IMG/VR virus record: IMGVR_UViG_3300023184_000116
Span: 1-63,679 of that record
Length of the DNA: 63,679 bases
From: a virus
Lineage: Duplodnaviria > Caudoviricetes
Direction: 5' to 3' (one strand)
Made by a program: the position numbers and the translations under genes
In this document: positions 12,021-52,195 of the stretch, one piece after another
How the letters are laid out: each line of letters starts with the position of its first letter
How positions within the stretch are numbered: position 1 is the stretch's first letter
Notes under the pieces: generated by a model
Seen by the model: only the letters and a program-made list of their open reading frames with translations
What the model was told of the DNA's origin: nothing
Databases searched by the model: none

Positions 12021-12125
12021 TTAACTCCTTAGAGATGTTTTATCTATTGCTATGTTGGCTGACTGTAGGCAATCGCCATAAGACTCATGATCTTGAGTCG
12101 GGCAACCCGAACGACAAACCGACAT
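12021..12125 (-). CDS. 34-aa Cys/His peptide MSVCRSGCPTQDHESYGDCLQSANIAIDKTSLRS
   Basis: Manual translation; TAATG coupling to the fibre gene; homologue at 46897..47004 differs mostly at synonymous sites. Confidence 0.7.
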   Translation of the reverse strand: MSVCRSGCPTQDHESYGDCLQSANIAIDKTSLRS

Positions 12126-13640
12126 TAGCCCCAAGTTCCTAGTGATGTTGTGCTTGATGAACCTAACTCAACTAAAGAACCATAAGACTCTCGGTTGATT
12201 GTCATGGTTGTACCATTGACCGCACTAAGACTCAATTTCGGTTGGAAGTATAAACCACTTGCAGCTGTACGCAAAATACCCGAGATTCTTAGTTGGAATA
12301 CCTGGGCAGTGGCTGAGCCAGCAATAGTTCCGCCAATTTGCCAGTTAGCGGTTGTGCCATTTATGAATGCTCCGAAATCGTTAGTGCTTAACCAGTTACC
12401 GCTGCTTGATGATCCAATGAAACCTGCTTGATGCGTAATAAAATTAAAGTTTGATACTGCATCGCCAGCAATAGTCAAACGCAAACTAGCACTCGCTGCT
12501 GTTGTGTTGCTGATAGTGCCACTAAGTAAGTAATCAACATAATAGGTTTTGCTGTTGCCAACTGTTACTCCATTTGATAATCCAAACGGATCATAACCAG
12601 TTAAAGCTGATAAATTGCTTCCACTGTTTACACTGACATTGTTACTGGGTGAATACCACAACGAAGGTGCAAGTGCGTTGGTTGCAAGTTTTGCCGCAGT
12701 CACACTGTTGTCGGTCAAGTTGGCACCAGGCAAAGAAGTTAAAGATGCGCCACTGCCTGAAAAACTTGCAGCAGTAACAATGCCCGAAGCACCAACCGAA
12801 GCAACCGCAGTTCCACCGTTGTATTGCCATTCTTGCAAGTTCTGCTGAGTAGCAGTCACAACAATCTGACCACCAGTGCCAGTGCCATTCGTACCCTGCA
12901 AAGAAGTGACTCGGATAGTTGTTGCAGAAACCACAGTGATTGTTGTCGTTCCGTTGAAGTTTGAATCCGAGAACCCAGACAACACAACAGACTGACCAGC
13001 AACCAAACCGACAGTCGAACTGAAACCGCTAACAGTGTCAAAGGTAACACCAGCACCGCCAGTGTGAGTTGCAGTCAAACCAGTAATGGTCAACGAACCA
13101 GCAGGCTTCACAACCATCGGCACAGCTGAAGTCGAAGTTGATTGAACAAGAACCTGACCAGAACCAGTCTGCGACAAGTTGCCTGAACTAACCGCAACCG
13201 CACCAGTGAAAGTTGCACCCGACAAATTGGCTTTAGTCGCATCACTGTTATGCACATGATCCGCGCGAGCGTACCTGGTCGAAGTTCCAACCGCAGCAGT
13301 TCCATTGTTAGCCGGTGTTGCCGAGGCAGCCTGACCAAGAACAAACGCGGTTGAAGCAACCTGAGTTGTGTTTGTATCAACTGAAGCAGTCGGCGCAGTA
13401 GGCGTGCCAGACAATGCAGGATTCGAACCAAAAGAAGTCAATGCCGAACTTGTGCTGGCCGAAGTCAACAAAGTTGCTGATGCTGGAATTGTTGTGCTGT
13501 TGACCGATGTCACATTAGGAAGTGAAGTTGTTGCAGTTGTGACCAAAGTTGCTGATGCTGGAATTGTTGTGCTGTTAACTGAAGTCACATTCGGAAGCGA
13601 TGTTGTTGCAGTTGTAACACCATTGGTGACAGTCGCAGCA
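12021..13640. repeat. direct repeat copy 1 (fibre C-terminal region plus peptide)
   Basis: Homologous to 46897..~48430; exact identity seen for ~12453..13084, offset 34,879. Confidence 0.9.
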
Positions 13641-14279: not shown

Positions 14280-15623
14280 TTAGTAACCTGATGGAGCGAC
14301 GGTGCCAGTGCCAGAGATCAAGGCAGCGTTCTTTGCAAAGCGATGTGCAAGAGCAGCGTAACCGTAAACCTGGAAACGAACGGTTAGGTTCGCTGACAGA
14401 ACATCTGGAAGTACGCGAGTCTTAACACCTGATTCGAACAAGTAAGAATCAGAGAACTTGCCAAGAAGAATCGGTGACTGGTTTGTTCCAGCGCCGTAAG
14501 TCTTGGTCATAGTTGCATCAACGTAAACAGGAACACCGTAAATTGAACCAACAAGACCAGCAGGTGCACCAGGGCTTGTAGTAATACCTGAAGCATTGAA
14601 TGGACCATTAGCGGTAGGAACAATTAGTGGACGGCTTGAACCATCAACTTGTGAAGCGAACCAATACCAAGTGCTCGGATGCATAACAATTGCTTCAACA
14701 GCTTTGTAACGGTTTGTGACAACCTGCGAAATTGCTTTCGTGATCGCGGCAAGGCCGTTCGGTGCAGATGGAGTTGCTTCAGTCCAAGTAACAGGAAGAC
14801 CCGCAGCAGCTGAGGTAACAAAACCTTTAAGCGTGCCAGAAGTTCCGTCACCGGTACCAACAACAGCGGTGTTTAGCTGCAACGCGTAATCAGCCATAAG
14901 ATCACCAAATACAAGACGATCAAGACCGCCAGCAATTGGTGACTGTTCAACAAGCTGGATCGAAACGTTCTCGTAACCACTGATCGTCTGAACAGGTGCG
15001 GTGATGGTTGAAGTAACCAAATCGCGTGGTGTTGTTGGCGCCATTGTGCTTGAGTTATCAGCTGACTGGAAACCAACACGTGTACCGGTTGTGATCGCAG
15101 GAATGTTGATTGAATCAGTTCCAGCAGGTAGCGCCATCTTTGTTACAAGATCAGCGGTTACACGAGCAGCACGAGCAAATTCCGCGTACTCATTGATTAG
15201 GTACAAAGGCGGAACAAAATCGCCACCGCTTGTATCCGTACGGTTAATGTCGCGTGTTTCAACAGCAACTTCTTGCTGATGACGATGCAAGCGTTCCCAT
15301 GAAGTTGAATCATTGCGAAGCTGTGCATTGATCATGTCGCGAACGAAAGAGTTATCTGAACCCTTATCGTACGTCATGGCTTCGCGAGTTACAACAGCAG
15401 AACCAAAAGCCTTAACACCTTCAGCTGCGCGTGCTTCTTTAATAGAAGCGGTGCGAGCTTCAAGCGCTTCAGCGCTTTCAATTTTGGCATCAAGATCTTT
15501 GATCTCTGCCTGACGTGCTTCGACGGCGTCCAATGTTTCGGTGGACGCTTCGCCAGCAAGCAACGCCTCCGCGTCAGCTGCAGCGGTGCTGCGCGCTTCG
15601 CGTAGATTGTCAAGTAATGACAT
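14280..15623 (-). CDS. major capsid protein, HK97 fold, with N-terminal delta-like coiled coil (phage B)
   Basis: GG.FVPP, G.GTSGTLKG, VMHP..W, GRPL-like and GSIYGVPVYVD motifs; start MSLLD after AAGGAG. Confidence 0.9.
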   Translation of the reverse strand: MSLLDNLREARSTAAADAEALLAGEASTETLDAVEARQAEIKDLDAKIESAEALEARTASIKEARAAEGVKAFGSAVVTREAMTYDKGSDNSFVRDMINAQLRNDSTSWERLHRHQQEVAVETRDINRTDTSGGDFVPPLYLINEYAEFARAARVTADLVTKMALPAGTDSINIPAITTGTRVGFQSADNSSTMAPTTPRDLVTSTITAPVQTISGYENVSIQLVEQSPIAGGLDRLVFGDLMADYALQLNTAVVGTGDGTSGTLKGFVTSAAAGLPVTWTEATPSAPNGLAAITKAISQVVTNRYKAVEAIVMHPSTWYWFASQVDGSSRPLIVPTANGPFNASGITTSPGAPAGLVGSIYGVPVYVDATMTKTYGAGTNQSPILLGKFSDSYLFESGVKTRVLPDVLSANLTVRFQVYGYAALAHRFAKNAALISGTGTVAPSGY

Positions 15624-15701
15624 TTGCGTTTCTCCTTTTGAGAATAGTTGTTTGTTGTGTTGCAATCCGCCGGGACCAAAGTGCCGGGGGAAATCTATGT
15701 G

Positions 15702-17096
15702 TTAGCGATTCTTTGAATTGCTAAACTTTTGTTTTAACTCAAGCATTCGTTTACGTAACTCGAGTGCTTCCTGTTCAGCGTCTTCAGCTGAAGCGGTGCG
15801 CATTCCAATAGTTGTTGCATCATAAGCTGGCCAAGTAACAACAGAAACTTCGAACAAGTTTAGATCTTGCAAAGTACGAAGACCATCATTGCGAGTGTCA
15901 CCATCAGGCGCAACAGTGAAAGCGAAAGACATTTTAGAAACATCACCACGTGAAACAGCTGAGGCAAGTTCCTGTGCGCGAGGATTATTTGGATCTAGAT
16001 CTGCTTCCATCCATAAACCTGTTTTATCTTGACGCAATGACATTGTGCCTGATTGTGTTGAAGCAAGAGGCAAACTATCCGTGTCATGATTAACAAGCAG
16101 GAACACTGGTTCATCTGAATCAAGTGTGCGAGTGAAAGCGCCTGGCGCAATCACTTCACGAAACGATAAACCTGTTGCTTCCTTGTTAAACTGTGCAGCA
16201 TAACCACCAATTCGCAGAGAAGTCGAATCGGTAGAAAGTGAACGAACCTCACAGTCCATTGTTACTCGTTCAGCTAAAGCCATTTTTGATTTACGTGATT
16301 CCATTTCAACATCCTCATCGCGTGGTTCAATTGTTTCAACAGGTTCAAAATCAAGATCTGCAGAGTTCATTTGCATTACCGGTTCAGCATCATCATCCTC
16401 GTCAATGCCTTGAGCATCAACTGGATCAGGTGAAGGTTCATTAACTTCTTCACCAAGCGAAGCGGTTAACTGCCATTTGTAAAACTGTTGATTATCAATT
16501 GCGCCAGCAATAAAGTTTGCAATGCCTTGTTGATTGTAACTTGTTGCACAATCAAACACGTCAGCTAGTTGATCCAAGAAAACATTATTTGCATCTAAAA
16601 GATCTCTAGCAAGTTCCATTGGGTCTTGACCAGGCTTTGAATCCTGTAAGTAACCAAGCGCAGCAAACTCGGCCAAAGTTGAAGGTGCAACAACACCGAT
16701 CTTGCGCAAGTTCTCTGCAATAGGATCAACGAGTTCATAAGCTGTTTCATAAATCTTTTGAAACAATTTATGGTACTCACTAAAGTCTGCACCTTTAACA
16801 TTCCAATGTGCGCCATGCGCACGGAAATAAAATTGAACAGCAGTTCCAAGAAGTTCTGTTAATTCCTCGGGCAAGTCCGAAACTGTTTCGGTTTCTTCCA
16901 TGTCGAGAGATTCCATGCTTTCGCCTTCCAATAAAGCCACGCGGGCAGATAACTTGTCGAGAATCTTTGAAGCCCATGCTCGGCCTTCAACCCCTGTTGC
17001 TTTGCTTATTGCTACAACATCAACTAACTCTATCGAGTCAACATCAATGCCTCGTTCTGTTTGAACAATTTTTGGTACACGAAAAGTTTGAGACAT
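15702..17096 (-). CDS. prohead maturation protease (HK97 type) fused to an N-terminal Dps/ferritin domain
   Basis: C-terminal half GYAAQFN...EVIAPGAF...LVNHD...MSFAF...EVSVVTWPAY; N-terminal half HGAHWNVKG.DF...HKLF..IY......D.IAE. Confidence 0.85.
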   Translation of the reverse strand: MSQTFRVPKIVQTERGIDVDSIELVDVVAISKATGVEGRAWASKILDKLSARVALLEGESMESLDMEETETVSDLPEELTELLGTAVQFYFRAHGAHWNVKGADFSEYHKLFQKIYETAYELVDPIAENLRKIGVVAPSTLAEFAALGYLQDSKPGQDPMELARDLLDANNVFLDQLADVFDCATSYNQQGIANFIAGAIDNQQFYKWQLTASLGEEVNEPSPDPVDAQGIDEDDDAEPVMQMNSADLDFEPVETIEPRDEDVEMESRKSKMALAERVTMDCEVRSLSTDSTSLRIGGYAAQFNKEATGLSFREVIAPGAFTRTLDSDEPVFLLVNHDTDSLPLASTQSGTMSLRQDKTGLWMEADLDPNNPRAQELASAVSRGDVSKMSFAFTVAPDGDTRNDGLRTLQDLNLFEVSVVTWPAYDATTIGMRTASAEDAEQEALELRKRMLELKQKFSNSKNR

Positions 17097-18322
17097 TAAC
17101 TAAGCACTCCCATGACTGGAACAGATTTATCAGTATCAGTGCCAGTTGCTGGTGAATCAGTTGTTGTTTGACCAGGTAATGCTTGATGGAAATCGTCACC
17201 GCCAACATAGGGTTCATAGCCTTCTGTTTGACGAGCCTCATTTGGTGTGAGTGCGCCCATTGCAATTTGCATTTGACTTACACGAGCACGAGTTAAAGCA
17301 TCGGTGCGTAACAAGACAGAGGTGTCAAAAACAACATCAACATTTGGTGCAAGTATCTTTGAGAATGCAATCTCAAGACGACGAAGCCAAGGCGTGATCG
17401 TGAAGATCAAGAAATTCAATGATGCTTGTTCAACATTTTGGTAAGTCTGGTTATCACCAATCGCACCAATTAAGTGTGAAGGAATTCGATAAATTCGTGC
17501 AATGTCACGAATCAACTGTTCACGTGATTCAATCATTTGCGCATCAGCAGCTGATGTTGTAATTGGTTTGAACTTTAGACCATCACTCATCACAGCTGGG
17601 CGACGATGACGACGATGAGTTGATTCCCATGTTCCTTGAATAACACGAGCCTGATCCAATGTCAACTTGCCATCGGTTTCCAAAACACCTGAAGGCGTTG
17701 CACCCTCACCGTAAAACTGTGACAAATGGCGATCCATTGCAAGCGATAACCCGACAAGGTTGCGTGACTGGATCAAAGGCGAAACACCAACCAATGATTG
17801 CGGTGGAGTGAACGTGCGAATGTGTAAAACATTTTCAGCATCCATCTCATTACCGAGATGCAAATAGCGACGCGAAATCTGATCACCTGTTGGAAGCACT
17901 TGCATCTGATACGGATGCAAAGGAACTAAACCAATCGGTGTACCAGACTTGTCACGATCAATGTGAATGTACGCGTTACCGTGCAACACTAGTGAAGCCA
18001 TAACCGTGTGAACAAACTCAAACGAATTAGTACCAGATGCAGGATCAGGATCAGCAATAAGCTGCGGAACAGGAACAGACTTGCGATTACCAGCTGGATC
18101 AATCTCGTAACCACGAAGCGGAAGCGATGCAACAGAATCAGCTAGCAAAGAAACAGCGGAAAGCACGGATGAAACACCAAGTGCAGTCCACTCATCGATG
18201 CGTTCACCAGCTGAAGACGTGATCGTGGTTTGACCATACAACTGTGAAAGCGGTGCAACATAGTTATTGAATTGCGGGTAACGCCCTGAAACATCGCCAA
18301 CACCGCGGCGCAGAATACTCAT
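17096..18322 (-). CDS. portal protein, HK97 family
   Basis: LHGNAY, LHIR, GVSP, IARIYRIP, TPNEAR. Confidence 0.95.
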   Translation of the reverse strand: MSILRRGVGDVSGRYPQFNNYVAPLSQLYGQTTITSSAGERIDEWTALGVSSVLSAVSLLADSVASLPLRGYEIDPAGNRKSVPVPQLIADPDPASGTNSFEFVHTVMASLVLHGNAYIHIDRDKSGTPIGLVPLHPYQMQVLPTGDQISRRYLHLGNEMDAENVLHIRTFTPPQSLVGVSPLIQSRNLVGLSLAMDRHLSQFYGEGATPSGVLETDGKLTLDQARVIQGTWESTHRRHRRPAVMSDGLKFKPITTSAADAQMIESREQLIRDIARIYRIPSHLIGAIGDNQTYQNVEQASLNFLIFTITPWLRRLEIAFSKILAPNVDVVFDTSVLLRTDALTRARVSQMQIAMGALTPNEARQTEGYEPYVGGDDFHQALPGQTTTDSPATGTDTDKSVPVMGVLS

Positions 18323-18480
18323 GACCTATCCGCCAAGAAAGCAAAAATCATTGCAAAGACTCCGCCCAAAATAAGAGACACCGACAAACCGAATAATCTG
18401 CCAACACCAACGATGATTGAAAACGCCCCTGCAATTTCGACAATCGCAGTAACGATTGCACGATCAAAAAACTTACGCAT
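18319..18480 (-). CDS. small membrane protein between terminase and portal
   Basis: 53-aa hydrophobic ORF coupled on both sides. Confidence 0.55.
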   Translation of the reverse strand: MRKFFDRAIVTAIVEIAGAFSIIVGVGRLFGLSVSLILGGVFAMIFAFLADRS

Positions 18481-20047
18481 TTGTCTCCCCTAAATCCATG
18501 CTCCAAGGATCAGAAATCATTCTAGTAACTGCACCTTGCAGCGAATAAAACGCAGCACGTTCAACCGCCATAACCGCAGCAACAGCTAGATCGATTCGTC
18601 TACTTGAATACCTTGATTCCTTTGCCAATCTGTAACCACGTGCATCCTGTTTCAAAGTCGCGTTAGCAATGTGACGAGACAAACGAGAATCACCGTCATG
18701 CGTCATTGAATCATTCATTACCGATTCAAAAAACCTTTGAGTCGCTGGCGTCATACGCGAAGCAGACTGTGGGAACAAAACAATCGGCAAACCTTCATCC
18801 TCAAGAACTTGAAACGTTCTCGCCCAACGATACGGGTCACAAGCAATCTCACGAACGTTAAACATTTCACAAGCATTACGAATCGACTGCTCAACATCCA
18901 TAATCGGAACTTGCCAATCAGCGTCAGCGTTATGTGGTTTCTCCCAGCAATCCCAAACAAAAAGATGAGGATTCTCATCGGTTGTTGCAGCAACAATCGC
19001 GGTGCAGTCACCGTTAAAGGAGCCATCAAACGCAAGCACAATGTCCGAACCAGGTTCAATGATCTTTGCTTTATCAACGACAGAATCCCATGAACCAGCT
19101 GGAAGCCAAGTATCAGATGTTGCAACCCATTGATTACAGCGCTTAGTTCTAAACTCAACCTCGGGCGTTCGCTGGATAACCGCTTCAAAATCTTCCTTTG
19201 AAACAATGTCATCAAAACCAGGGTTCGCAGCTTTCCATGTTGCAACATCACGATGATCAGAATCCTCAGGTGCTTCCCACCACGACATGAAAAACGATGG
19301 ATCATTGATCTCACCGGATGCAACACGTTTGCCATACTCGTACAAACCAAAACACAAAGACTCTTGACCAGATGAATCCATGCGCACACCAGCTGTAGTG
19401 ATACCAATCATCATTGGTTCCTTACGAGCACCAGCCGCAAGCTGCATAACATCCCAAAGCTCACGAGAAGGCTGAGCATGAACCTCGTCAAACGCAACAA
19501 GGGTTGGCGACAAACCTTCTTTAGTAAACGCTTCAGCTGAAAGCGCACGATACGTTGTACCAGTTTTTGGGTTGTAAACCGTGTCGCGATACACTTGCAA
19601 AAAATCTGAAAGATCAGGTTGCAACCGGATCATCTCTTTAACCGTGTCAAAAACGATTTTAGCCTGCGCACGATCAGCTGCGCAAGAATAAATCTCACCA
19701 CCGGATGGACCAAAAACAATGTGCTCAAGAGCGATCGCTGAAAGCCAAGCAGACTTGCCGTTCTTACGAGGAAGACCAATCAACGCTGTGCGATGACGAA
19801 GAGTCCCATCAGCTTTAACCGCGAACAATCTTTTTGTAAGATCTTTCTGCCACGGTCTAAAAATCATTGGCTCGCCAGAACTACCCGCGATCGAATCCTT
19901 TGTGATTTTACAAAGCGCCTCGGCGAAAGCAACCACATCATCACCGCGACTGCGTTTAAGATCTACAGCCGGAACATTAGTCAACCATCGAGGATCGTTC
20001 TTACTTGCCTTTGGCTTGGCGCTGTTGGATAAGTTGGTCAAGAGCAC
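18473..20047 (-). CDS. terL: terminase large subunit (phage B)
   Basis: PWQ, PRKNGKS, FDEVH, ITTAG, KAANP, RIDLAVA. Confidence 0.95.
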   Translation of the reverse strand: MLLTNLSNSAKPKASKNDPRWLTNVPAVDLKRSRGDDVVAFAEALCKITKDSIAGSSGEPMIFRPWQKDLTKRLFAVKADGTLRHRTALIGLPRKNGKSAWLSAIALEHIVFGPSGGEIYSCAADRAQAKIVFDTVKEMIRLQPDLSDFLQVYRDTVYNPKTGTTYRALSAEAFTKEGLSPTLVAFDEVHAQPSRELWDVMQLAAGARKEPMMIGITTAGVRMDSSGQESLCFGLYEYGKRVASGEINDPSFFMSWWEAPEDSDHRDVATWKAANPGFDDIVSKEDFEAVIQRTPEVEFRTKRCNQWVATSDTWLPAGSWDSVVDKAKIIEPGSDIVLAFDGSFNGDCTAIVAATTDENPHLFVWDCWEKPHNADADWQVPIMDVEQSIRNACEMFNVREIACDPYRWARTFQVLEDEGLPIVLFPQSASRMTPATQRFFESVMNDSMTHDGDSRLSRHIANATLKQDARGYRLAKESRYSSRRIDLAVAAVMAVERAAFYSLQGAVTRMISDPWSMDLGETNA

Positions 20048-20468
20048 TCACTCGTTTCACTTCGGCTACCCCTAGGCGAGATCGCGAAACAGGATCCAAG
20101 CCGAGACTCGCGAGAGCATCGGCAAAGGACTTGGACAAAATAGAAAGCAAACGACCATCGGCATTATCGAGAGTCGCGTGAAACTTATTACGAGCCGCAG
20201 CAAGATCATCCGCTAACCGAGCTGCGTTTGTAATCGCTTCAAGATCTGAATCAGGTGAAAGCCATGTGATCGCAAGCGACCAACAACCCTGCCAAACCTT
20301 TTTACCTTCAACACCAAGATCAATTGGTGCATCCGGAATCTTTGTCGCCATCGGCAACGGTGTAACCTGAGCAAGCTCAGGAAGTTTTCTTCCACCAGAG
20401 TCCCGACCAGGTGACCGACCTGTCGCGCGTTTGAGTTCCGCTGGGCGAGGCTGACGAGCCATAATCAA
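20001..20468 (-). CDS. terS: terminase small subunit (P27-like)
   Basis: P.P.ELKR..G, LGLDPVSRSRL; directly upstream of terL. Confidence 0.85.
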   Translation of the reverse strand: MIMARQPRPAELKRATGRSPGRDSGGRKLPELAQVTPLPMATKIPDAPIDLGVEGKKVWQGCWSLAITWLSPDSDLEAITNAARLADDLAAARNKFHATLDNADGRLLSILSKSFADALASLGLDPVSRSRLGVAEVKRVSALDQLIQQRQAKGK

Positions 20469-22469: not shown

Positions 22470-24608
22470 TTAAGCAAATAGCGCATTGGCTTGCCATTTC
22501 TGTACCGAGGTTGTGAACCATTTTTTGCTCGTTCCATCGCTTTCGACACGGATCAGGCCTTGCCCAATGGCGTCTTCTTTTGCTTTTCTAAGATCACTTG
22601 AGTGTCCTTTAACATTTGTGTCAATGTCTTTAGTCATGCATCCTTGATTCGCTTTGACATAGTCAATGAGAGCCTCCATGACGCGTTCTTTGGTTCGGTC
22701 GTGTTTGCCAATGGATCTTTCGATTCGTAGTGACCTGTCCGCTTCTGACCATGTTAAGAGCTGCTCGGCGACTTCCACGTCTCGACCTGTGGCGCTAAAG
22801 AATCGTTCACCTGACTCGTTTTTGTTTAGTAACCAGCGAACATCCGCCCAGTCGTCTAACCTGGTTGCTCCACGAGCTCGGTCGATGCCTTGTTCCTGGG
22901 CTCTTCCTGTGTGAGCTGGCATGATCAAGTTTTGGACACCGGCTCGGTCTTTGATAATGTCGAGCGTGTCAAGGAATACGCCAACATCCGAGTTGCTGTT
23001 TTCTTCACCTGAACCAGTGAACGCTCTCGCGTACGGGTCAATGACCCATGTTTGTGCGTTTAGGTTGCCAAGAATTTCAACGACCTTGTCTTCAATGTGT
23101 TTTGTCGTGAGTGGCATTCGTAGTCCACGCAAGTGCACTAGATACACTTTTGATTGGTTTCTGATTCCGACTTCTCGCATCCATTGTCTGTATTGCCGTT
23201 TGTCAACCTCGTAGTTAAAGATAACAATGTTGCCATCGTGTGGTTGTACGCCGTAGCGACCTAGAAATGGTTCATCATCGATTAGTGATTTCACGAACTG
23301 GTTCATCATCGTTGTTTTACCTGATTTGAACGCAGCGGTTAGGACAACGTTTGCACCTGTCGGGAATAGTTCATTGATCAAGTAAGATTCTTGTTCATCT
23401 GGTTGCTGTAGTTCGATCGATAGGTTACCTAGGATCTCTGGTGCGCGAAACGTTTTAAGGATTTGTTCATCATCGAGTAATTTTTTTGCTTCTCGGCGCA
23501 CTGCTTGTGTTTCGATCTCGGTTGCTAGTAACAAGTCGCGTCGACTTATTTGTGCCATTGGCTCGTCAATGATTTCACCGGTTTCTTCATCGTACAAAGG
23601 TAGATCAATCACTGGCGTGAACTGGTTTAATGGTGCTTGCTGTGGCTTGGCGCAATCACTGCCGCGACATGTTTCGTTTCGATAGTCACTTATTTTCGCT
23701 AGCGCACCTGTGACCATGTTTCGCCACTCGTTTGCTGCAACATAATGTGAGCCACGTTCTGAGCTTAACATGGTGGTGAATACTTGTTCACCAACATCGA
23801 GCGCGTTTGATACACCGTGGTGTCCTCTGGCGCCAAGTGAAACAAGTCGCATAACGATCGGTAGTGTTGCATCGTGTCGTGATCCTTCACTACCTGATAA
23901 CACGCGATGCAAATTGTGCACCTCGTTTGTTACTCGTTCACATGGTTGACCATTGGTTTTTATTGCTTCAAGCATCGTGTTTGTTTGCATCGGTGTTAAC
24001 TGTTTCTTAATGCTACTAGTTTCGAATTTACCTTGTGTGAGTGCAATGATCCATGTTTGTGGCAGCTCAGGTAGTTCACTTGTGTTCGGCCCTGCGCCAA
24101 TGACATCGGTTCCTGCAGGGTTGATCCATCTATAAGTTCCACCCTCTGGATGTATACTTGGCCAAACAACGGCGTAGCGATGCTCGTTTCGAATGATTTC
24201 AATTCCAGGGCCAGCGATACTCGGCCACGCTAGATTCTCTGGGATCTTAAATAACCTAATCCCGCTCGTGCCATCGTTTCGTGACGTGACACGCCAAGTT
24301 TCTGGTAAGATCCCAAAGTCTTGCTCGAGTTGCATTAGCGTCTGTCCACCTGTTTTGTCCTTGTACGCGTCAACGTCTAAACCGATCACGTTTTTCGGTA
24401 AGCGTAAACAAATGTTTCCTTTAGCGTTTAGGATCCATTCATAGATTTGTTCAGCGCTCGGATCTGGTGCATCTTTGCCCGTGTAACCTGATGGTGGTGG
24501 CCATTTCTCGTTTATTGGTAATGGTAAAACACCGAGCCAACCGTTGTTAAAATACGACGCAGCAGCTAGGTTGTACGGTGATTTGTTTTCACTGTTTTGC
24601 ATTACCAT
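22470..24608 (-). CDS. bifunctional primase-polymerase fused to an AAA/RecA-like helicase
   Basis: VLPL...K.PP, IGLDVD, VWPSIHPEG..YRW; AAFKSGKT, VIDP, H..R, RGA. Confidence 0.9.
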   Translation of the reverse strand: MVMQNSENKSPYNLAAASYFNNGWLGVLPLPINEKWPPPSGYTGKDAPDPSAEQIYEWILNAKGNICLRLPKNVIGLDVDAYKDKTGGQTLMQLEQDFGILPETWRVTSRNDGTSGIRLFKIPENLAWPSIAGPGIEIIRNEHRYAVVWPSIHPEGGTYRWINPAGTDVIGAGPNTSELPELPQTWIIALTQGKFETSSIKKQLTPMQTNTMLEAIKTNGQPCERVTNEVHNLHRVLSGSEGSRHDATLPIVMRLVSLGARGHHGVSNALDVGEQVFTTMLSSERGSHYVAANEWRNMVTGALAKISDYRNETCRGSDCAKPQQAPLNQFTPVIDLPLYDEETGEIIDEPMAQISRRDLLLATEIETQAVRREAKKLLDDEQILKTFRAPEILGNLSIELQQPDEQESYLINELFPTGANVVLTAAFKSGKTTMMNQFVKSLIDDEPFLGRYGVQPHDGNIVIFNYEVDKRQYRQWMREVGIRNQSKVYLVHLRGLRMPLTTKHIEDKVVEILGNLNAQTWVIDPYARAFTGSGEENSNSDVGVFLDTLDIIKDRAGVQNLIMPAHTGRAQEQGIDRARGATRLDDWADVRWLLNKNESGERFFSATGRDVEVAEQLLTWSEADRSLRIERSIGKHDRTKERVMEALIDYVKANQGCMTKDIDTNVKGHSSDLRKAKEDAIGQGLIRVESDGTSKKWFTTSVQKWQANALFA

Positions 24609-25423
24609 TGCCCGCTATCAATTGTCGCTGTTAACCATTCTTCAAAATCTGTTGACTCAACACGTAAGTCACCTTTAAGGATCTTTCGAGCATCACGGCT
24701 AATGTTCTCTATTGTGCTACTAGTCCATAAAGGTTTATACGGTTTTGATACTGGTTCAATTGACCACGTGAGATCTTTCACGTTATCAAAATGTTGTTCA
24801 TACAAATGTAGACTACCAACCGAGTGTGAGTACCAACCCATTTCAAGATCTAGTGCTCTCGCAACTGCGCCTTGTAGTGCACAGAACTGGATTAGATCGT
24901 AAGGTAATCCGAGCCAAACATCATTGGATCGCATTGTTGTTCTCGCGCATAGTTTGTTGTCACGGATCAGGAATTGTATTGAGAGTGTGCATGGTACATC
25001 ACGTGTGTCCACGTTTAGATCCTGTGTCGAGTTGTACATTGTTAATACTGCTTGACGTGTAAACATGTCACGTTTTAATACTTCAATAAGTGGTTTAAGT
25101 TTACCGTAGATTCTTATTCCGTACGCACCGTGAAAGATTCCACCATCGGTATAGTTTTGAAATGTTGAAACATTTGCAATGAGTTGTTCTGGTTCTGTTG
25201 TTTGACCAACGAGTTGTAGTGCCTCGCTCGCGCCAATGTAATCTCGTAGGTTGCGACCAGCGATACCGTTGAGTGGTATTTGCCAAGGCTCAGAGATGAC
25301 AAATGTCATGTTGCACATTTCACGTGTTTTTTGTCCTCTAGGTGATGACTCGTCACCGAATCCGTGCACAATGTTCGCAGCTGATAAAACTACTTGCGCC
25401 GGTGTTGTTAATTCTATAAACAT
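24602..25423 (-). CDS. thymidylate-synthase-family enzyme, probable dCMP hydroxymethylase/methylase
   Basis: GAYG.R, TRQAV, DVPCT, MRSNDVWLGLPYD, SLHLY; Asp at the ThyA Asn177 position. Confidence 0.8.
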   Translation of the reverse strand: MFIELTTPAQVVLSAANIVHGFGDESSPRGQKTREMCNMTFVISEPWQIPLNGIAGRNLRDYIGASEALQLVGQTTEPEQLIANVSTFQNYTDGGIFHGAYGIRIYGKLKPLIEVLKRDMFTRQAVLTMYNSTQDLNVDTRDVPCTLSIQFLIRDNKLCARTTMRSNDVWLGLPYDLIQFCALQGAVARALDLEMGWYSHSVGSLHLYEQHFDNVKDLTWSIEPVSKPYKPLWTSSTIENISRDARKILKGDLRVESTDFEEWLTATIDSGQW

Positions 25424-25887
25424 TAGTTTTCCTTTTCATAAAGTTCGTTGCTATCAATTATTTGCACGTCAATGGTGTGGATCTTTGGTGCAAGATCTAG
25501 AAAGTCTCGTTGTGCCAAAATGCTTGTCTCGATTTGTTGCTGTGTTTCACCTCGCTCGGTTAATGTTTTAAGGATCTCTTTTTCATCGCGTTTGATAATG
25601 ATGATCCGTGTTTTTAACGCGCTAAGGAACATGTTGCATGAGTTGAATGTGTAAATGTTTGGGAACAAACTTTCACGTTTAAAGTATTTTGGCCAAATCA
25701 TTTCACCAACATGCCATCGATCAAGTACATAATTGTAGCGAGGATCAAGTGAATACACGTATTCGTTTGCCCAGTTTTTTGTTTTTGGTTGGCTAGCGTG
25801 TAAATAGTTTGCGTTTGTTTCTTGTGCTAATCGTTTCGCGTACGATGTTTTACCAACACCATCTGTTCCTTCAATAATCGTTATCAT
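25423..25887 (-). CDS. dNMP kinase (thymidylate-kinase-like P-loop)
   Basis: IIEGTDGVGKTS and LDRW..GE. Confidence 0.8.
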   Translation of the reverse strand: MITIIEGTDGVGKTSYAKRLAQETNANYLHASQPKTKNWANEYVYSLDPRYNYVLDRWHVGEMIWPKYFKRESLFPNIYTFNSCNMFLSALKTRIIIIKRDEKEILKTLTERGETQQQIETSILAQRDFLDLAPKIHTIDVQIIDSNELYEKEN

Positions 25888-26771
25888 CGTATTTCACCCC
25901 AGTTTCTAAACGAGTCAATGTCGCCACTCGTTAAATTGTTCGGTGTCACATCACCAGCCACGTTCCATACTACCGTGCTAGCTGCTTTTGGTGCACTAGT
26001 TTTATCAAGCATGAAGTTTTCGAGTCCTTTGCAATCGTATGTTGGCGCAGTGGATACTTGTTCATTGATTTGTTTCGCCAAATCAGCTGACTGTTGAAAG
26101 ATCTTATGGTACGAGTTTGTTTCTGCTCGACCGATTTCACCAGGATGAAGGTTACGGGCAACCGCCACGCCATGAAAACGAGCATTTGGCCACGCGATCT
26201 GTAGTGTTCGTGTTAATACACCAGTGCTGATCACGCTAACCACGTCACGCGGCTCTGGTCGATTACCCCATTGCTGCAGCGTGGACTTGATACCAGCCGC
26301 GACCACGAGTGGGTGATCTAAACCAAATGGAACAAACTCTGCATTGTTTTCCGCTGCCCATTCCTTGGCGTACTTGTTGAGAACTGGCATTGCAGCGATT
26401 CGTCTAAAGATCGGTTTTGCTCCACGTTCGATACAAACAAGTTGGTGTGCACTTGCTTCTTTAGCTGATGGCATGAATAGTGTGAGTTTCTTGTCGTATT
26501 TTTTCGCTAACGCTGCTAGAGATACACCTGCCCAACCAACACGTGGCTGGACGTAAACCAAGTGATCTGTTTGCATGCTACGCACTAAGAGATCTCCCCA
26601 GCGTCCTTTCGTGCCGACACCGGTTATTGAATCATCCCACAAGGTCGCACCATGAAATGATTGCAGTGAAGGTGGTGGTGTTTCATCAACCCACCCGTCT
26701 GCTAAATCTAGCCATTCATCACGTGTCTTGTACGCGTATTTATTTGTCACATCAGTCGTGATCTTAAACAT
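25884..26771 (-). CDS. PLP-dependent enzyme, fold type II (TrpB/cysteine synthase-like)
   Basis: GTKGR Lys motif, LVY..P..G.A..SLA, STGVL phosphate loop; start MFKIT. Confidence 0.75.
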   Translation of the reverse strand: MFKITTDVTNKYAYKTRDEWLDLADGWVDETPPPSLQSFHGATLWDDSITGVGTKGRWGDLLVRSMQTDHLVYVQPRVGWAGVSLAALAKKYDKKLTLFMPSAKEASAHQLVCIERGAKPIFRRIAAMPVLNKYAKEWAAENNAEFVPFGLDHPLVVAAGIKSTLQQWGNRPEPRDVVSVISTGVLTRTLQIAWPNARFHGVAVARNLHPGEIGRAETNSYHKIFQQSADLAKQINEQVSTAPTYDCKGLENFMLDKTSAPKAASTVVWNVAGDVTPNNLTSGDIDSFRNWGEIR

Positions 26772-26976
26772 TATGCTCCTCCTTGTAAGCAATAACTTTA
26801 ATCAAAAATTCTTTAGTCGCTTTTAAAGTAGCAGCGTGTCCAACGTAATAACTTTCACCGTATTTTTTGCCATTCATCCATTCGTAAACAAGCCAAACTC
26901 TTTCTTGTTCATCAGGTTTGTAAATAAAAAAGTTTTTGTATTCGTAATAACCATCGCGGACTTTAGTTAACTTCAT
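26764..26976 (-). CDS. hypothetical early protein
   Basis: 70-aa coupled ORF, AT-rich. Confidence 0.6.
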   Translation of the reverse strand: MKLTKVRDGYYEYKNFFIYKPDEQERVWLVYEWMNGKKYGESYYVGHAATLKATKEFLIKVIAYKEEHNV

Positions 26977-27842: not shown

Positions 27843-27972
27843 TTGTCCTTTGTTTGTCCTATCAGCTGTCCGGCTGATAAGACCATTCTATACACAAACC
27901 AAAAGCAAAAACTACCATTTCAGCAACTTTTTTTTAACTATTTTTTTCCTTTATTTCCAATGCTTTTTCTAG
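27843..27972 (-). promoter_or_regulatory. repeated promoter/stem-loop/RBS module, copy 1
   Basis: A-tracts, AAATGGTAGTTTTT, TGTGTATAGAAT, ATCAGC-6-GCTGAT hairpin, AAAGGACA RBS. Confidence 0.8.
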
Positions 27973-31056: not shown

Positions 31057-31177
31057 TGTCCTTTTGTCCTATCAGCTGTCCGGCTGATGTTTCTATTCTA
31101 TACACAAACCAGAAGTAAAAACTACCATTTGGACAACTTTTTTTTAACTATTTTTTTCCTTTATTTCCAATGCTTTT
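31057..31177 (-). promoter_or_regulatory. repeated promoter/stem-loop/RBS module, copy 2
   Basis: Near-identical to 27843..27972. Confidence 0.8.
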
Positions 31178-31610
31178 ACGCGCTACAGCTAGATTCAGTG
31201 CACAAAACACCATCATCATCTAGTGCACGTTTGCAAGTTTTACACTTACCAGACACACCATCATAGCCATGCAACTGTCGCGCAGCATTGATCTCTGCTT
31301 TCTTTTTATACACTTCAAAAACATCATCAGCTGTCCAACCAATCGCGAGCCAAAGATTAACAAGAAAATGCAACGCGTCAACAAGTTCACTACCAAACGA
31401 TAACTGGTTAACATGTCGACTCTTCGCCCACGGTTTCCAACCACACTCTGCTAGCGCTTCATGCAACTCGTCCTGTAGTGCAAGATTCATCATCGCAATG
31501 TACTCTGCTTTTGCAACCGGGTCAAGCGTGTGTGGTTCAACACCGAACGATTCCTTTTGCAAACGCGCTTGTCGTTCAAAGATCAATTTCAATGTGTCAA
31601 TGTTTGTCAT
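31176..31610 (-). CDS. all-alpha dimeric dUTPase/dCTPase (MazG-like)
   Basis: E..EAL....WKPW...ELVDALHF...Y.KK..IN..RQ..GY. Confidence 0.85.
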   Translation of the reverse strand: MTNIDTLKLIFERQARLQKESFGVEPHTLDPVAKAEYIAMMNLALQDELHEALAECGWKPWAKSRHVNQLSFGSELVDALHFLVNLWLAIGWTADDVFEVYKKKAEINAARQLHGYDGVSGKCKTCKRALDDDGVLCTESSCSA

Positions 31611-32041
31611 TACAGTTTTCCTTTTTCTAGACGAGCAATGTTCAACTTTAGAACATCCGCGATGTTCTCAATTTCAGATCTTGGATAACTCGGTCCATCA
31701 ATGTAATCACTAAACACGATCTGTTTAAAGCCGTGCGCAGCAATAATCGTTAAACAGTTCGCGCACGGAAAATGTGTCACAGCTAAAAGACCGTTGCGTG
31801 TGTCCTTGATCGTTGCATAACGAAGCGCGTTCGCTTCAGCGTGGATCACGTAAGGACGACGAGCATCACGATCAAGCCAATCGATTTGCACATTCGATGG
31901 TGCACCATTGTAGCCAACACTTGCGACACTCATGTCTTCACGCAAAACCGCTGCACCAACTTTAATGAACGGATCTTCACTGCGTTTAGCTGCAGCGAAC
32001 GCTAGTTCGAGTGCATACTCTGGCCAAGTTAATCGTTTCAT
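31610..32041 (-). CDS. dCMP deaminase
   Basis: RS.DP..KVGA, GYNG, HAEANA, PC..C. Confidence 0.9.
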   Translation of the reverse strand: MKRLTWPEYALELAFAAAKRSEDPFIKVGAAVLREDMSVASVGYNGAPSNVQIDWLDRDARRPYVIHAEANALRYATIKDTRNGLLAVTHFPCANCLTIIAAHGFKQIVFSDYIDGPSYPRSEIENIADVLKLNIARLEKGKL

Positions 32042-36144: not shown

Positions 36145-36279
36145 TCTTGTCCTTTGTTTGTCCGTTCATCAGCTGTCCTGCTGATAAGACCATTCTATAC
36201 ACAGTTTGTGGGTAAAAACTACCATTTTGGCAATTTTTTTTAATTATTTTTTTTCCTTTATTTCCAATGCTTTTTCTAG
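36145..36279 (-). promoter_or_regulatory. repeated promoter/stem-loop/RBS module, copy 3
   Basis: Same blocks as copies 1 and 2; follows the late terminator. Confidence 0.8.
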
Positions 36280-44161: not shown

Positions 44162-45157
44162 TTAGAGTTCTGAATCTAGTGTCTTGTAAGTGATGGTGAA
44201 CGGTGCATCAGTGCCATTGTCAAAGACAGTGAAACCGAAACTGACATCGATAACGCCAGGGCCAGAAACCATTGGTGTGTCACCATCGAACTTCGCGGCT
44301 GGAATTGTGATGCTGAGAGTTTCTTTGTCAGAAGCTGAACCAATCGTTGCGCCTTCAAAAGTTAGTTTCAAGCCAGCAGTTGAGTCAGCCAAGAACTTAT
44401 CCAAAAGAACAGTGTCGGTGAACTCAGCTGTGACTTTGCCAGAGATTGCTCGGAAACCGTTGATGATTTGTTCAGACTTTGAACCTGCTGCGCCTAAGTT
44501 GTAGCGATCAGTTTTCAACGAGTTGTCAACAGTCAAACTGAAGTCCTTGATGTTGGCATAAGTAGTAGGCGAGCCAGCATTGTCAGTGATTGAACCCTGA
44601 GCAAAGTGGAACAAGTTACTTGTCGCAATGTTTGTATAGGCAACGGTCGCAGAGGTTGATGCACCTGTTGTGAAACCTTTGCTGTCCAGACTGAACTTCG
44701 CTTTGGCGATGTCGCCAGAACCAACAGACAGTTCGAAGTTGGTTATCTTGCAACCGCTTAAAGTTTTGTAAGTTAGAGTCCCACCGTATTGAGGAACAGC
44801 AACTTGAGTTGTGAAACTATCGCCAATCAAATCTTGTGCGGTGAATAGGTAGGTGTAAGTCCCATTGGAACTGCTTGGTGTTGGAACTGAACCAGTTGCA
44901 AGACTAAGCAACAAACCCATTCCGCGAGTCTGCATGTCAACTTCGAAGTCGCCTTCACCAGCAAGAGTTGTGACAACGCGGCGATTCGCGCGAGCAACCA
45001 ATCCGCCGTTGCGAAGTCCTTGACCAACAACAGTGTTCTTGACATACTTTGTGCCTTCACTGTTGAACTCATAGAAACGTTCAACAGTGACAGCAGTGCC
45101 GAAACTTGATTCCTTTTTGATGCCTAGCCACGAGCCAATGCCTGAGCCGATTGCCAT
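44162..45157 (-). CDS. major tail tube protein
   Basis: LGIK.ES.FGT...RF; GCKI; siphovirus tube pattern. Confidence 0.8.
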   Translation of the reverse strand: MAIGSGIGSWLGIKKESSFGTAVTVERFYEFNSEGTKYVKNTVVGQGLRNGGLVARANRRVVTTLAGEGDFEVDMQTRGMGLLLSLATGSVPTPSSSNGTYTYLFTAQDLIGDSFTTQVAVPQYGGTLTYKTLSGCKITNFELSVGSGDIAKAKFSLDSKGFTTGASTSATVAYTNIATSNLFHFAQGSITDNAGSPTTYANIKDFSLTVDNSLKTDRYNLGAAGSKSEQIINGFRAISGKVTAEFTDTVLLDKFLADSTAGLKLTFEGATIGSASDKETLSITIPAAKFDGDTPMVSGPGVIDVSFGFTVFDNGTDAPFTITYKTLDSEL

Positions 45158-46896: not shown

Positions 46897-47004
46897 TCAC
46901 TTCACTTTCAAAGATGTTTTATCAATTGCAATGTTTGCAGCTTGTAAACATTCACCATAAGAATTATGATCTTGTGTTTTGCAACCAGATCTACAAACAG
47001 ACAT
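46897..47004 (-). CDS. 35-aa Cys/His peptide MSVCRSGCKTQDHNSYGECLQAANIAIDKTSLKVK
   Basis: Manual translation; homologue of 12021..12125. Confidence 0.7.
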   Translation of the reverse strand: MSVCRSGCKTQDHNSYGECLQAANIAIDKTSLKVK

Positions 47005-48430
47005 TAGCCCCAATTTCCTAGTGATGTTGTGCTAGATGAACCTAACTCAACTAAAGAACCATAAGACTCTCGGTTGATTGTCATGGTTGTGCCATTGACT
47101 GAACTAAGACTTAATTTCGGCTGAAAGTATGAGCCAGATGCAGCTGTACGCAAAATGCCAGAGATTCTTAGTTGGAATACCTGGGCAGTTGCTGAGCCTG
47201 CTATTGTTCCACCGATTTGCCAGTTAGCAGTTGTGCCATTGATGAAAGCCCCAAAATCATTAGTACTTAGCCAGAGGCCATTAGATGACGAACCAATGAA
47301 ACCTGATTGATGAGTAATAAAATTGAAGTTAGATACTGCATCGCCAGCAATAGTCAAACGCAAACTAGCACTCGCTGCTGTTGTGTTGCTGATAGTGCCA
47401 CTAAGTAAGTAATCAACATAATAGGTTTTGCTGTTGCCAACTGTTACTCCATTTGATAATCCAAACGGATCATAACCAGTTAAAGCTGATAAATTGCTTC
47501 CACTGTTTACACTGACATTGTTACTGGGTGAATACCACAACGAAGGTGCAAGTGCGTTGGTTGCAAGTTTTGCCGCAGTCACACTGTTGTCGGTCAAGTT
47601 GGCACCAGGCAAAGAAGTTAAAGATGCGCCACTGCCTGAAAAACTTGCAGCAGTAACAATGCCCGAAGCACCAACCGAAGCAACCGCAGTTCCACCGTTG
47701 TATTGCCATTCTTGCAAGTTCTGCTGAGTAGCAGTCACAACAATCTGACCACCAGTGCCAGTGCCATTCGTACCCTGCAAAGAAGTGACTCGGATAGTTG
47801 TTGCAGAAACCACAGTGATTGTTGTCGTTCCGTTGAAGTTTGAATCCGAGAACCCAGACAACACAACAGACTGACCAGCAACCAAACCGACAGTCGAACT
47901 GAAACCGCTAACAGTGTCAAAGGTAACACCAGCACCGCCAGTGTGAGTTGCAGTCAAACCAGTGATAGTCAACGAACCAGTTGGCTTCACAACCATTGGC
48001 ACAGCTGAAGTCGAAGTTGATTGAACAAGAACCTGACCAGAACCAGTCTGCGACAAGTTGCCAGAAGTAACCGCAACCGCACCAGTGAAAGTTGCGCCAG
48101 ACAAACTGGCTTTAGTCGCATCACTGTTATGCACATGATCTGCGCGAGCGTATCTGGTCGAAGAACCAACCGCAGCAGTACCATTATTAGCCGGTGTCGC
48201 TGAAGCAGCTTGACCAAGAACAAATGCAGTAGTTGCAATTTTTGTTGAACTATTATCAACTGCCTGAGTATTGGCTACAGGATCAGTGCCAAACGAAGTC
48301 AACGCCGAACTTGTACTAGTAGAAGTCAACAAAGTAGCAGAAGCTGGAATTGCAGTGCTGTTAACTGAAGTCACATTTGGAAGTGAAGTCGTTGTGGTGT
48401 AAACACCATTAGTAACAGTAGCAGCATTAC
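46897..48430. repeat. direct repeat copy 2
   Basis: Homologous to 12021..13640; identical core ~47332..47963. Confidence 0.9.
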
Positions 48431-50947: not shown

Positions 50948-52195
50948 CTAGCTAGCGATACTTGAAGAAGTAGCGATGCGGTACAAGGATTCCTGACGGT
51001 AAACCTTGAAGCCAAGCACACCGTACCAACCGATTGGTCGGAAACGCATCAACTTGTCAACAACAGGGCCAATAACCACGTGTGGTTCTTCAGCGACTGC
51101 TTCAGCAAGAGCCTGCTTACCAGCAACGATTGTGCGGTAAACCTTGGTTGTTGCAGTGAAAGTGATGGTGTTTGTTCCAACAGCACCAGTGTTAGCCAAG
51201 TCTACAGTGATCGTTAGACGGTCTGCTGAGATAGCGGTAATACGTGCGTATGTAGCAGCAGCAACACCAGAACCAGGAGCAGTAGCGCCACCAGCAGTGT
51301 TAGTGCCAGAGATAACGTAACCAACCTGAATAGCTGAATCGATTGCTGTAGCGAATACGATTGTGAACGCGCCAGATGCACCAGAAGCAGCAGCCTTTGT
51401 GTAGGTTGTTGCAGTGGTTGCACCTTCGTAAGTCTGAACACCGTTAACTACACCTGAGTATAGACGTGGTGATTCAACGTACATAGCACCTTCGTAAACG
51501 CCGATAGCGCCTGGCCATAGCTGACCTGCACCTGACTCGTTGTAGATGTGGGCATCGCGCCAAGCGCCTGCACCAGTCTCTGCACGAAGATCGTGTGAAA
51601 CCTCTGGGTGAATACCACACCAGTATAGGTCGTCAACACGTGGCACAGCCTTGTTGGTGCGAAGCTTAGCAACAACTTTACGCATGTCAGCTGAGGTGAT
51701 AACACCACCACTCTGGGTTACAGAAGCGGTAGAAGTTCCATCACCGTAGATAACGTTGGTACCTGAACGAAGTTCAGTTAGCGCAACTTCGTCAATGCTG
51801 TCAGCCATGTTGAAGGCGATGATGTCAGCGATTGCTGGATCAACGTCTGAAAGGCTGAATAGCTCTAGTTTGCGAGTTGCAAGCGAAGCGTTACCGTATT
51901 CAGCAAGAGTTACTGGAACTGAAGTGGTGTTACCGAAACCAATAGCATCAGGATCAACAGTCTCAGAAAGAGGGGTTGTTGCCTTAGCAAGGTCTGTGTA
52001 AAGCTGGAACACAACAGAAGAACCAGGCATAGCCTGCTGAACTGGGCGCTTATCTGCTACATCGCGGATAAGTGGGACTGCACGAAGTGCAAATTCGACA
52101 TACCGGTCATACGCGGTCTGGACCAGTGAGGTACCAAGCGAGCTGCCCGATGTGTCGGTGTAAGTATTAGAGGAACCGTAAGGTGTATTTGCCAT
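50948..52195 (-). CDS. major capsid protein (phage A) with inserted beta domain
   Basis: AYD...FALR, TL.EYGN, IHPEV.HDLR, IG.YEG...VE.P, GWYG. Confidence 0.9.
   Translation of the reverse strand: MANTPYGSSNTYTDTSGSSLGTSLVQTAYDRYVEFALRAVPLIRDVADKRPVQQAMPGSSVVFQLYTDLAKATTPLSETVDPDAIGFGNTTSVPVTLAEYGNASLATRKLELFSLSDVDPAIADIIAFNMADSIDEVALTELRSGTNVIYGDGTSTASVTQSGGVITSADMRKVVAKLRTNKAVPRVDDLYWCGIHPEVSHDLRAETGAGAWRDAHIYNESGAGQLWPGAIGVYEGAMYVESPRLYSGVVNGVQTYEGATTATTYTKAAASGASGAFTIVFATAIDSAIQVGYVISGTNTAGGATAPGSGVAAATYARITAISADRLTITVDLANTGAVGTNTITFTATTKVYRTIVAGKQALAEAVAEEPHVVIGPVVDKLMRFRPIGWYGVLGFKVYRQESLYRIATSSSIAS

Follow-up and report, generated by a model that had tools for sequence, protein, structure and literature searches.

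A Dps-type ferritin-like domain fused to the HK97-type prohead protease in uncultured tailed phages

Why should a tailed phage join a Dps-type, ferritin-like domain to the protease that matures its head? The question is raised by a gene at positions 15702..17096 (minus strand) of the virus record IMGVR_UViG_3300023184_000116 (Duplodnaviria; Caudoviricetes), the whole stretch of which (63,679 nucleotides) was analysed and is referred to here as the window. A sequence-only reading of the window had proposed that this gene encodes a Dps domain linked in frame to an HK97-type maturation protease, and that a ferritin-like domain would in this way be loaded inside an HK97 shell. The fusion architecture was found to be real and widespread, and it is apparently undescribed. 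What is chiefly new is that the same Dps clade recurs in fusions to capsid-internal proteins, and this recurrence bears directly on the question of where the Dps domain works.

One polypeptide with a Dps-type domain and a head protease

The gene (P0001) consists of an uninterrupted open reading frame (ORF) of 464 codons followed by a stop codon, and its 464-aa product carries both Pfam domains. It is one polypeptide in which a Dps-type domain, a disordered acidic linker, an HK97-type protease and a basic C-terminal helix follow one another.

The Dps-type ferritin-like domain occupies aa 72-215 (16452..16883, minus strand). The Pfam profile PF00210 (Ferritin) matched aa 78-215 with an E value of 1.4e-13 and 51.4 bits (cut-off 24.5), and the PHROGs search assigned aa 72-215 to phrog_3636. 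A sequence search of the Protein Data Bank (PDB) returned 39 chains at E<=0.01, with 8ff9 as the best (E 5e-13); these are Dps-family or Dps-like chains except for the lowest-ranked entries, two engineered spike chimeras, one of which bears the name of a Dps-family ferritin fusion. An AlphaFold2 (AF2) monomer model was built from 58 family members. The model was weak overall, with a mean predicted local distance difference test score (pLDDT) of 60.7, but confident for aa 71-210 (block means 79-94), where it places helices at residues 75-99, 105-132, 159-186 and 190-214 and a short BC-loop helix at 141-147. When the model was compared with the PDB by Foldseek, the top hits were all Dps proteins, and the top ten gave target template modelling (TM) scores of 0.85-0.93 and root-mean-square deviations of 1.4-2.3 Å. 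On this model, the fold of the N-terminal half is that of a Dps four-helix bundle with a short BC-loop helix.

The residues of the Dps ligand motif are present (H94..H97-W-N-V-K-G-A-D-F...H109...I115-Y116...D124-P-I-A-E128). The E. coli Dps ligands H51, H63, D67, D78 and E82 presumably correspond to H97, H109, Q113, D124 and E128 in the window protein, which possesses four of the five ligands of the Dps inter-subunit ferroxidase. H97, W98, H109, D124 and E128 are invariant in 58/58 family members, and in a wider set (151 proteins with 152 domain copies) the respective numbers of copies that retain them are 151, 151, 151, 152 and 152. Judged by this conservation, selection acts on the iron ligands. 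A two-copy model of aa 72-218 scored 0.52 against 0.00 for the best of three controls, a result which shows likeness to the Dps dimers already solved, possibly through model memory of them, and is no proof of binding. The mark for a dimer was reached by 20 of 30 proteins solved as one-chain pairs and by one of 23 solved as single chains. The runs agreed in at least 94% of contacts with a partner pLDDT of at least 92, and the predicted symmetric interface sets residues 94-99 of one copy against residues 123-131 of the other, which is the ferroxidase two-fold of Dps.

Behind the Dps domain lies an acidic, proline-containing linker of 66 aa (aa 216-281; 16254..16451, minus strand). It is predicted to be disordered (pLDDT 30-49) and contains 23 aspartate and glutamate residues versus five lysine and arginine residues (net charge -18) as well as six prolines. 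At its end, just ahead of the protease, a conserved P-R-x-E...(M)E-S/E-R-K-S segment was found, in which R268 and K269 are invariant. The following HK97-type prohead serine protease (Peptidase S78) spans aa 282-441 (15774..16253, minus strand) and was matched by PF04586 (Peptidase_S78) with an E value of 2e-39 and 135.8 bits versus a cut-off of 21, by the NCBIfam model TIGR01543 (proheadase_HK97) with 116.6 bits versus a cut-off of 59, and, over aa 240-455, by the head maturation protease family phrog_80 of the PHROGs. H337, S390 and E416 are invariant in 58 sequences, and by analogy with HK97 gp4 we take H337 and S390 to be the catalytic pair. The C-terminal tail (aa 442-464; 15705..15773, minus strand), part of a predicted helix at residues 437-460, is the sole basic segment (isoelectric point (pI) 10.4, net charge +4) of a protein with a net charge of -42; L445, R450 and K457 are invariant in it, and by analogy it is presumed to be the capsid-targeting element. 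At the opposite end, the region preceding the Dps domain (aa 1-71; 16884..17096, minus strand) is acidic (pI 4.45) and predicted to be helical (pLDDT 51-70).

The fusion was followed through independent assemblies. Contigs of four lake or freshwater runs from three studies showed no indels over positions 15000-17800. Two of the runs may be the source of the record; each of the other two, 95-99% alike to it, has one contig that spans the linker free of gaps (X3 record 5 at 15000-16675 and X4 record 12 at 15975-16788). Of the 12 in-gene differences listed (sixteen further differences lie beyond these), ten are at the third position of a codon, and the four within the Dps part are all among them. 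A seeming joint from 15347 to 16044 in the X3 deep contig (record 7) consists of two pieces of 20-24 nt, and it was taken as unrelated sequence.

In the protein collection, 792 matches at E<=1e-3 were found among 7999 scored, and each of the 120 metagenome relatives listed unites the two Pfam domains in a single chain of 463-737 aa. Among 63 related viral loci, 45 span both halves; nine match only to residue 255 or less and lie near contig ends, and nine match the Dps part only. The fusion-bearing relatives include genomes of 31-34 kb rated 96-100% complete, one of them with terminal repeats. The fusion is, with virtual certainty, real.

Cultured phages gave a different picture of the two halves. 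None of 658 matching cultured-phage records covers 80% of the query, and the 30 records listed of these 658 (all below 60% identity) match via the protease half. The Dps part matches only 28 of 50,697 cultured-phage records, all below 34% identity; none of the 23 annotated hits listed is a protease, their labels being Dps, DNA-binding or stress, or hypothetical, and among the five without annotation one is a stand-alone ORF of 163 aa. In a scan of species-representative genomes with two peptide patterns, no cultured bacterium or prophage with the fusion was found, and only two metagenome-assembled bins (L067 and L068) carry it.

The window protein is a short form of the family. Most relatives have an additional N-terminal domain of about 100 aa, which matched phrog_2859 at aa 6-101 of the longer relatives (part of the profile) and no Pfam family; in the alignment, aa 1-71 of the window protein are a shortened remnant of this viral domain. 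The domain resembles only unnamed viral clusters, with DUF6321 at 0.86 as a lead only. Many longer relatives further contain a Hva1_TUDOR domain and an insert of about 130 aa between Dps and protease, and P0009, P0019, P0026, P0053 and others are examples with extra modules on the protease. These variants indicate that the protease carries a variable train of accessory modules.

Most of what the sequence-only reading had claimed about the gene held. Its Dps signature with ferroxidase-type His, Asp and Glu at residues ~75-215 is borne out by the profiles, the fold and the conserved ligands, and its acidic in-frame linker by the composition of aa 216-281. Hidden Markov models placed Ferritin in the N-terminal and Peptidase_S78 in the C-terminal half, both above cut-off, and together with TIGR01543 confirmed the HK97-type maturation protease, while the Pfam matches of the neighbouring genes (see below) agree with the canonical portal-protease-capsid slot. 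The same fusion, sought in other phage contigs, was found there. Two doubts that the reading had itself raised were removed: a non-ferritin fold of the N-terminal half is ruled out by the Pfam, PDB sequence and Foldseek matches, and a sequence error or missed stop is excluded by the gap-free independent contigs and the two-domain relatives.

Recurrent fusion of a phage Dps clade to head proteins

The Dps part (aa 60-225) was searched against 1.84 billion cluster representatives and gave 3299 matches at E<=1e-3, 660 at E<=1e-10 and 50 at E<=1e-30. Fusion partners were counted among the best 150 of the 3299, which are metagenome gene calls without genomic context. By length, 35 of these are of 230 aa or less, 32 of 231-400 aa and 83 of more than 400 aa. 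A Pfam capsid-protease domain is present in 35/150 (32 Peptidase_S78, two XkdF-type S78_2 and one Mu-like_Pro), with the Dps domain N-terminal in 20 of them and C-terminal in 15, and Phage_Mu_F is the Pfam partner in two more. The remaining proteins longer than 230 aa (78) were compared with the PHROGs, and 18 of them have a partner of the head-and-packaging category: nine a portal-like, protease or virion-structural region, six other head maturation proteases, two a minor head protein and one a head morphogenesis protein. In total, 55/150 representatives contain a fusion to a capsid-internal protein. Other Pfam partners among the 150 were Zeta_toxin (2) and DUF5824 (9), with HAD phosphatase, WGR, DUF6321 and DUF5872 in others.

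A FastTree phylogeny of the Dps domain (151 rows, 150 columns, low resolution) showed the two protease orders scattered over the tree. Each order label needs ten changes, and the starred branches force at least four and at least six of them. As far as these sequences tell, fusion of this phage Dps clade to head proteins is recurrent; it occurs in both domain orders and involves three kinds of capsid protease, MuF, and portal-like and minor head proteins.

Some members of the clade stand in unusual contexts (P0122, P0163, P0266, P0198, P0187, P0259 and P0260). One protein of 777 aa carries tandem copies of the domain, others join it to zeta-toxin-like kinases or to polynucleotide-kinase or HAD-phosphatase-like domains, and in proteins of 1700-2100 aa it lies together with portal-like and protease-like regions.

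Possible roles inside and outside the capsid

The genes around the fusion form a head module on the same strand, in the order terminase small subunit, terminase large subunit, portal, Dps-protease fusion and major capsid protein (Pfam). The small (20001-20468) and large (18473-20047) terminase subunits (PF03354, PF20441; PF23931 weak) are followed by the portal gene (17096..18322; PF04860, E 1.1e-78), the stop codon of which overlaps the start codon of the fusion gene in a TAATG; a GGAG precedes it by ten bases. A 53-aa, strongly hydrophobic ORF at 18319-18480 (minus strand) fills the gap between the large terminase subunit and the portal, with an overlap of a few bases at each end. The gene of the HK97-family major capsid protein (14280..15665, minus strand; PF05065 at aa 171-437, phrog_2263) begins 36 bases downstream of the fusion gene, its true start being likely the ATG at 15623, which is preceded by a Shine-Dalgarno-like AAGGAG. 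The first ~100 residues of the capsid protein are acidic (pI 4.5), rich in Ala, Glu and Leu, and delta-like, and the ORF list holds no separate scaffold gene between the protease and capsid genes.

HK97-type proteases co-assemble into procapsids. In the proposed mechanism, the protease part would enter the procapsid by contacting the acidic delta region at the N-terminus of the capsid protein, and the covalently attached Dps domain would be dragged inside with it. There the Dps domains would pair on the two-fold axis and form the inter-subunit iron sites, possibly within 12-mers. After assembly, the protease would cut the delta domains and also the flexible linker, and the compact Dps bundle or cage would stay in the head beside the DNA as an internal protein; capsid pore sizes make the exit of such a compact helical bundle or cage unlikely. 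The retained Dps part would, from what is typical of Dps chemistry, oxidise and sequester Fe(II). The phage might benefit through less Fenton damage to its packaged genome in oxic, sunlit lake water or, alternatively, through iron or protection carried into the next host. We infer encapsidation, cleavage, oligomeric state, virion retention and phage benefit in this scheme, and the role inside the procapsid could be DNA protection, iron carriage or that of an assembly hub. E. coli Dps binds DNA directly. Direct DNA binding of that type is unlikely for the window protein because its Dps domain is acidic (net charge -11, pI 4.4; preceding region net -6) and is without a lysine-rich tail of the kind by which some Dps proteins bind DNA.

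The reality of the fusion, the Dps fold, the conserved iron ligands and the dimer model, with the reservation made above, speak for a cargo carried by the protease, and other observations do so as well. The charge pattern of the proteins, with the basic tail as the only basic segment and an acidic capsid N-terminus, fits the cargo model, and in particular it fits docking of the tail on the delta region as in HK97. The entry of Dps into the procapsid is made more credible by the finding that the same clade is repeatedly fused to head proteins. Taken as a whole, the reading that the protease bears a ferroxidase cargo into the procapsid has, in our judgement, slightly better than even prospects. 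Retention of the Dps part in the mature virion, as a separate matter, falls somewhat short of even.

Several observations weigh against this cargo reading. No recognised head partner was found in 95/150 of the representatives, 35 of which are of 230 aa or less and may be free-standing genes or fragments. The fifth Dps ligand position is occupied by Q113, and among the 152 domain copies it is mostly G (62), E (31), A (19) or Q (16). The Dps domain scored far under the cut-offs of the NCBIfam Dps equivalogs (NF006975, 34.5 versus 114 bits; NF041388, 33.3 versus 170 bits), so that activity cannot be assumed from cellular Dps. The AF2 model of the protease half is poor (pLDDT <60), and a sequence search of the PDB at E<=1 found no solved relative of this half. 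The encapsidation step itself would depend on analogy with HK97 biology, and delivery into the next host is doubtful because a folded 12-mer would be unable to pass the tail. Finally, in published work, phage ferritin and Dps genes are read as helping the infected host against oxidative stress, for which no packaging is needed.

The last point leads to the strongest alternative, in which the infected cell, rather than the capsid, would be the place where Dps works. The fusion would then serve only to make much Dps late in infection, and the enzyme, as full-length or self-cleaved protein, would lower free iron and peroxide damage in the cytoplasm during virion building ("phage-mediated ROS defence", ROS standing for reactive oxygen species). 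Readings of this kind are given by Benler et al. 2021 and Kavagutti et al. 2019, cultured phages have free-standing Dps genes away from the head genes (for example beside thymidylate synthase in OQ829281.1), and conserved ferroxidase ligands would be required here too. However, such a role leaves unexplained why 55/150 representatives are fused, in both orders, to head proteins, and for an enzyme at work in the cytoplasm there is no advantage in attachment to a partner that ends up shut inside procapsids and digests itself there. We consider it an unlikely explanation, although the most serious of the competing ones.

A second alternative sees in Dps mainly an assembly device. As a dimeric or 12-meric hub it would gather protease and C-terminal tails, nucleate or size the procapsid or hold the protease inactive, and iron would be secondary. 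Both ends of Dps subunits point outward in known 12-mers, a geometry compatible with both domain orders; the two-copy model scored above its controls as well, with the reservation about model memory made above, and a separate scaffold gene is absent between protease and capsid. A purely structural role, however, would not require four metal ligands to be kept almost without exception across 152 copies. The N-terminal region of the capsid protein is itself delta-like, and most HK97-type phages assemble without such a device, as is seen from the cultured-phage matches, of which none covers 80% of the query and the 30 listed of 658 match via the protease half. This explanation appears quite unlikely to us, somewhat more so than a role in the cytoplasm.

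An internal start at M264 (MESRKS...) would give two products, an ordinary protease of ~200 aa and the full-length protein as a minor, cargo-bearing form. GAGGA lies 7 nt upstream of the M264 ATG, the short product would have the usual size of an S78 protease, and a Met stands directly before the conserved (E)RKS in 20 of the 26 genes caught by the search pattern, with 38 further loci left out of this count. On the other hand, the Met is absent in five of these 26 genes and shifted by two residues in one more, the purine-rich stretch consists of Glu and Asp codons and may be due to chance, and the start at 17096 is coupled to the portal stop. The sequence-only reading had named translation from an internal Met near the protease as a way in which the fusion could fail; as an obligatory start this Met is neither needed nor conserved. 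The two-product explanation is improbable, and it is compatible with the cargo reading rather than a replacement for it. Hardly credible at all is the view that a missed stop, a frameshift or the chimeric joining of a Dps gene to a protease gene has produced an artefactual fusion, for although the 63.7-kb record itself seems to be two joined genomes, so that assembly problems do exist there, four runs of three studies agree without indels, the 120 listed relatives are two-domain proteins, 45/63 viral loci span both halves, and the motif at the linker end is conserved.

The record, and the fusion among known systems

The record (63,679 bases, "linear", rated complete) holds two head and tail modules. 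Its first part, to ~36 kb, contains the terminase small and large subunits, the portal, the Dps-protease, the HK97-type capsid protein, an SU10-like adaptor and replication genes. The second part contains a PF13252 capsid protein (50948-52195), a tail tube protein (44162-45157), a 1542-aa protein and a terminase (62831-63679), the 5' end of which is cut by the end of the record. When five fusion-bearing relatives (31-34 kb, rated 96-100% complete) were inspected, the second capsid gene was found in none of the five and the primase-helicase of the first part in two. The record is probably composed of two phage genomes joined at about 33.6-36.7 kb, and the fusion finding is unaffected by this.

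A long tail-fibre-like gene is found in each half of the record, one encoding 610 aa and the other 1082 aa. At their 3' ends these genes share a stretch of 300 nt at 87% identity (12033-12332 versus 46912-47211) and one of 117 nt at 83% (13417-13533 versus 48278-48394), a similarity that suggests exchanged receptor-binding tips and a common host. An intergenic repeat of ~115 nt occurs in three copies, 78-91% alike, in the early and replication part (27853-27967, 31063-31177 and 36160-36274). The repeats may be regulatory elements, and the third copy suggests that the first genome extends to at least 36.3 kb. A set of nucleotide-metabolism genes of the first genome at 24602-26792 and 31176-32041 (minus strand) encodes thymidylate-synthase-like and kinase-like P-loop proteins, dUTPase_2 and a dCMP deaminase, and may serve modified or rebalanced nucleotide pools.

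If the Dps part is carried into the head, a genuine virus capsid would for the first time be seen to receive a natural ferritin-family cargo via the maturation protease. Such a case would tie phage assembly to the cargo loading of encapsulins, systems thought to share ancestry, and would show a simple rule by which foreign proteins are naturally packed into HK97-type shells. The ferritin and Dps genes of lake phages would be virion components and not only host-helping "auxiliary" genes, and the debate on iron bound to virus particles would gain a concrete mechanism. In its widest form, the proposal is that many uncultured tailed phages, those of lakes in particular, equip their heads as a matter of routine with a Dps-type ferroxidase by fusing it to a protein that is packaged already (an S78, XkdF or Mu protease, MuF or a portal-like protein); their virions would be natural nested cages, a living counterpart of and possible evolutionary bridge to the iron-storing encapsulins, and would hold an uncounted pool of virus-bound iron that protects the genome or is passed to the next host. 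This extension is tentative and, in our view, rather doubtful. The architecture is widespread, both in the 120/120 close relatives listed and in the 55/150 diverse clusters with head fusions, and this makes the proposal testable.

In a full-text literature search, with subscription journals outside its coverage, no description of a Dps-protease fusion was found. UniProt-derived viral models hold uncultured-phage fusions which are labelled only "Prohead protease" or "DNA-binding protein Dps", so that the sequences are public but unremarked. Free-standing phage Dps and ferritin-like genes belong to the same superfamily but are separate small genes, often outside the head module; such genes are reported for seven Lactobacillus phages and the gut "Gratiaviridae" (Benler et al. 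2021 among the sources). PF00210 was counted in 114 freshwater phages in Kavagutti et al. 2019 (Table S5), and ferritin-like proteins were detected in the virion proteomes of phage G and of a Vi01-like phage. With cellular Dps proteins (P. aeruginosa PA0962, HP-NAP and Listeria Dps) the domain shares the fold, the short BC helix, the HW...H...D...E pattern and the two-fold interface, but it differs from them by an identity of only ~16-29%, sub-cut-off scores, an acidic character, the lack of a lysine-rich tail and its embedding in a larger protein.

Accessory domains on head-internal carriers encoded among late genes are likewise known from the MuF-effector fusions and "polyvalent proteins". 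By its architecture and position, the Dps domain appears to be such an accessory domain on a head carrier among late genes, although the carrier here is the maturation protease. The words "Dps" and "ferritin" do not occur in the main text of Iyer et al. 2017. In engineered P22 particles, ferritin is fused to the scaffolding protein, an internal assembly protein, and its cage thereby reaches the inside of a phage-type shell; that system is man-made and combines a 24-mer ferritin with the P22 scaffold in a shell without DNA. HK97 gp4 belongs to the same protease family, has the same gene position and possesses a C-terminal tail as its presumed targeting element, but it is without an added domain, unlike the fusion protein. 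Duda, Oh and Hendrix reportedly described, in 2013, a C-terminal encapsidation signal of the HK97 gp4 prohead protease.

In function, the arrangement would resemble that of the encapsulin cargoes EncFtn/Flp and IMEF. In these systems, a ferroxidase of the ferritin superfamily with an inter-subunit iron site is put into an HK97-fold shell by a short shell-binding element, and the four-helix bundle of IMEF is said in a review to resemble Dps. The capsid gene of the window matched PF05065 and gave no encapsulin match in Pfam, which places it outside the encapsulins. In contrast to an encapsulin, the shell here is that of a genuine phage, which has a portal and terminase, a capsid protein of the delta type and a maturation protease, and the cargo is of the cage-forming Dps class. 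Its targeting would be achieved by covalent fusion to the protease instead of a cargo-loading peptide, and the lumen that it enters would later be filled with DNA.

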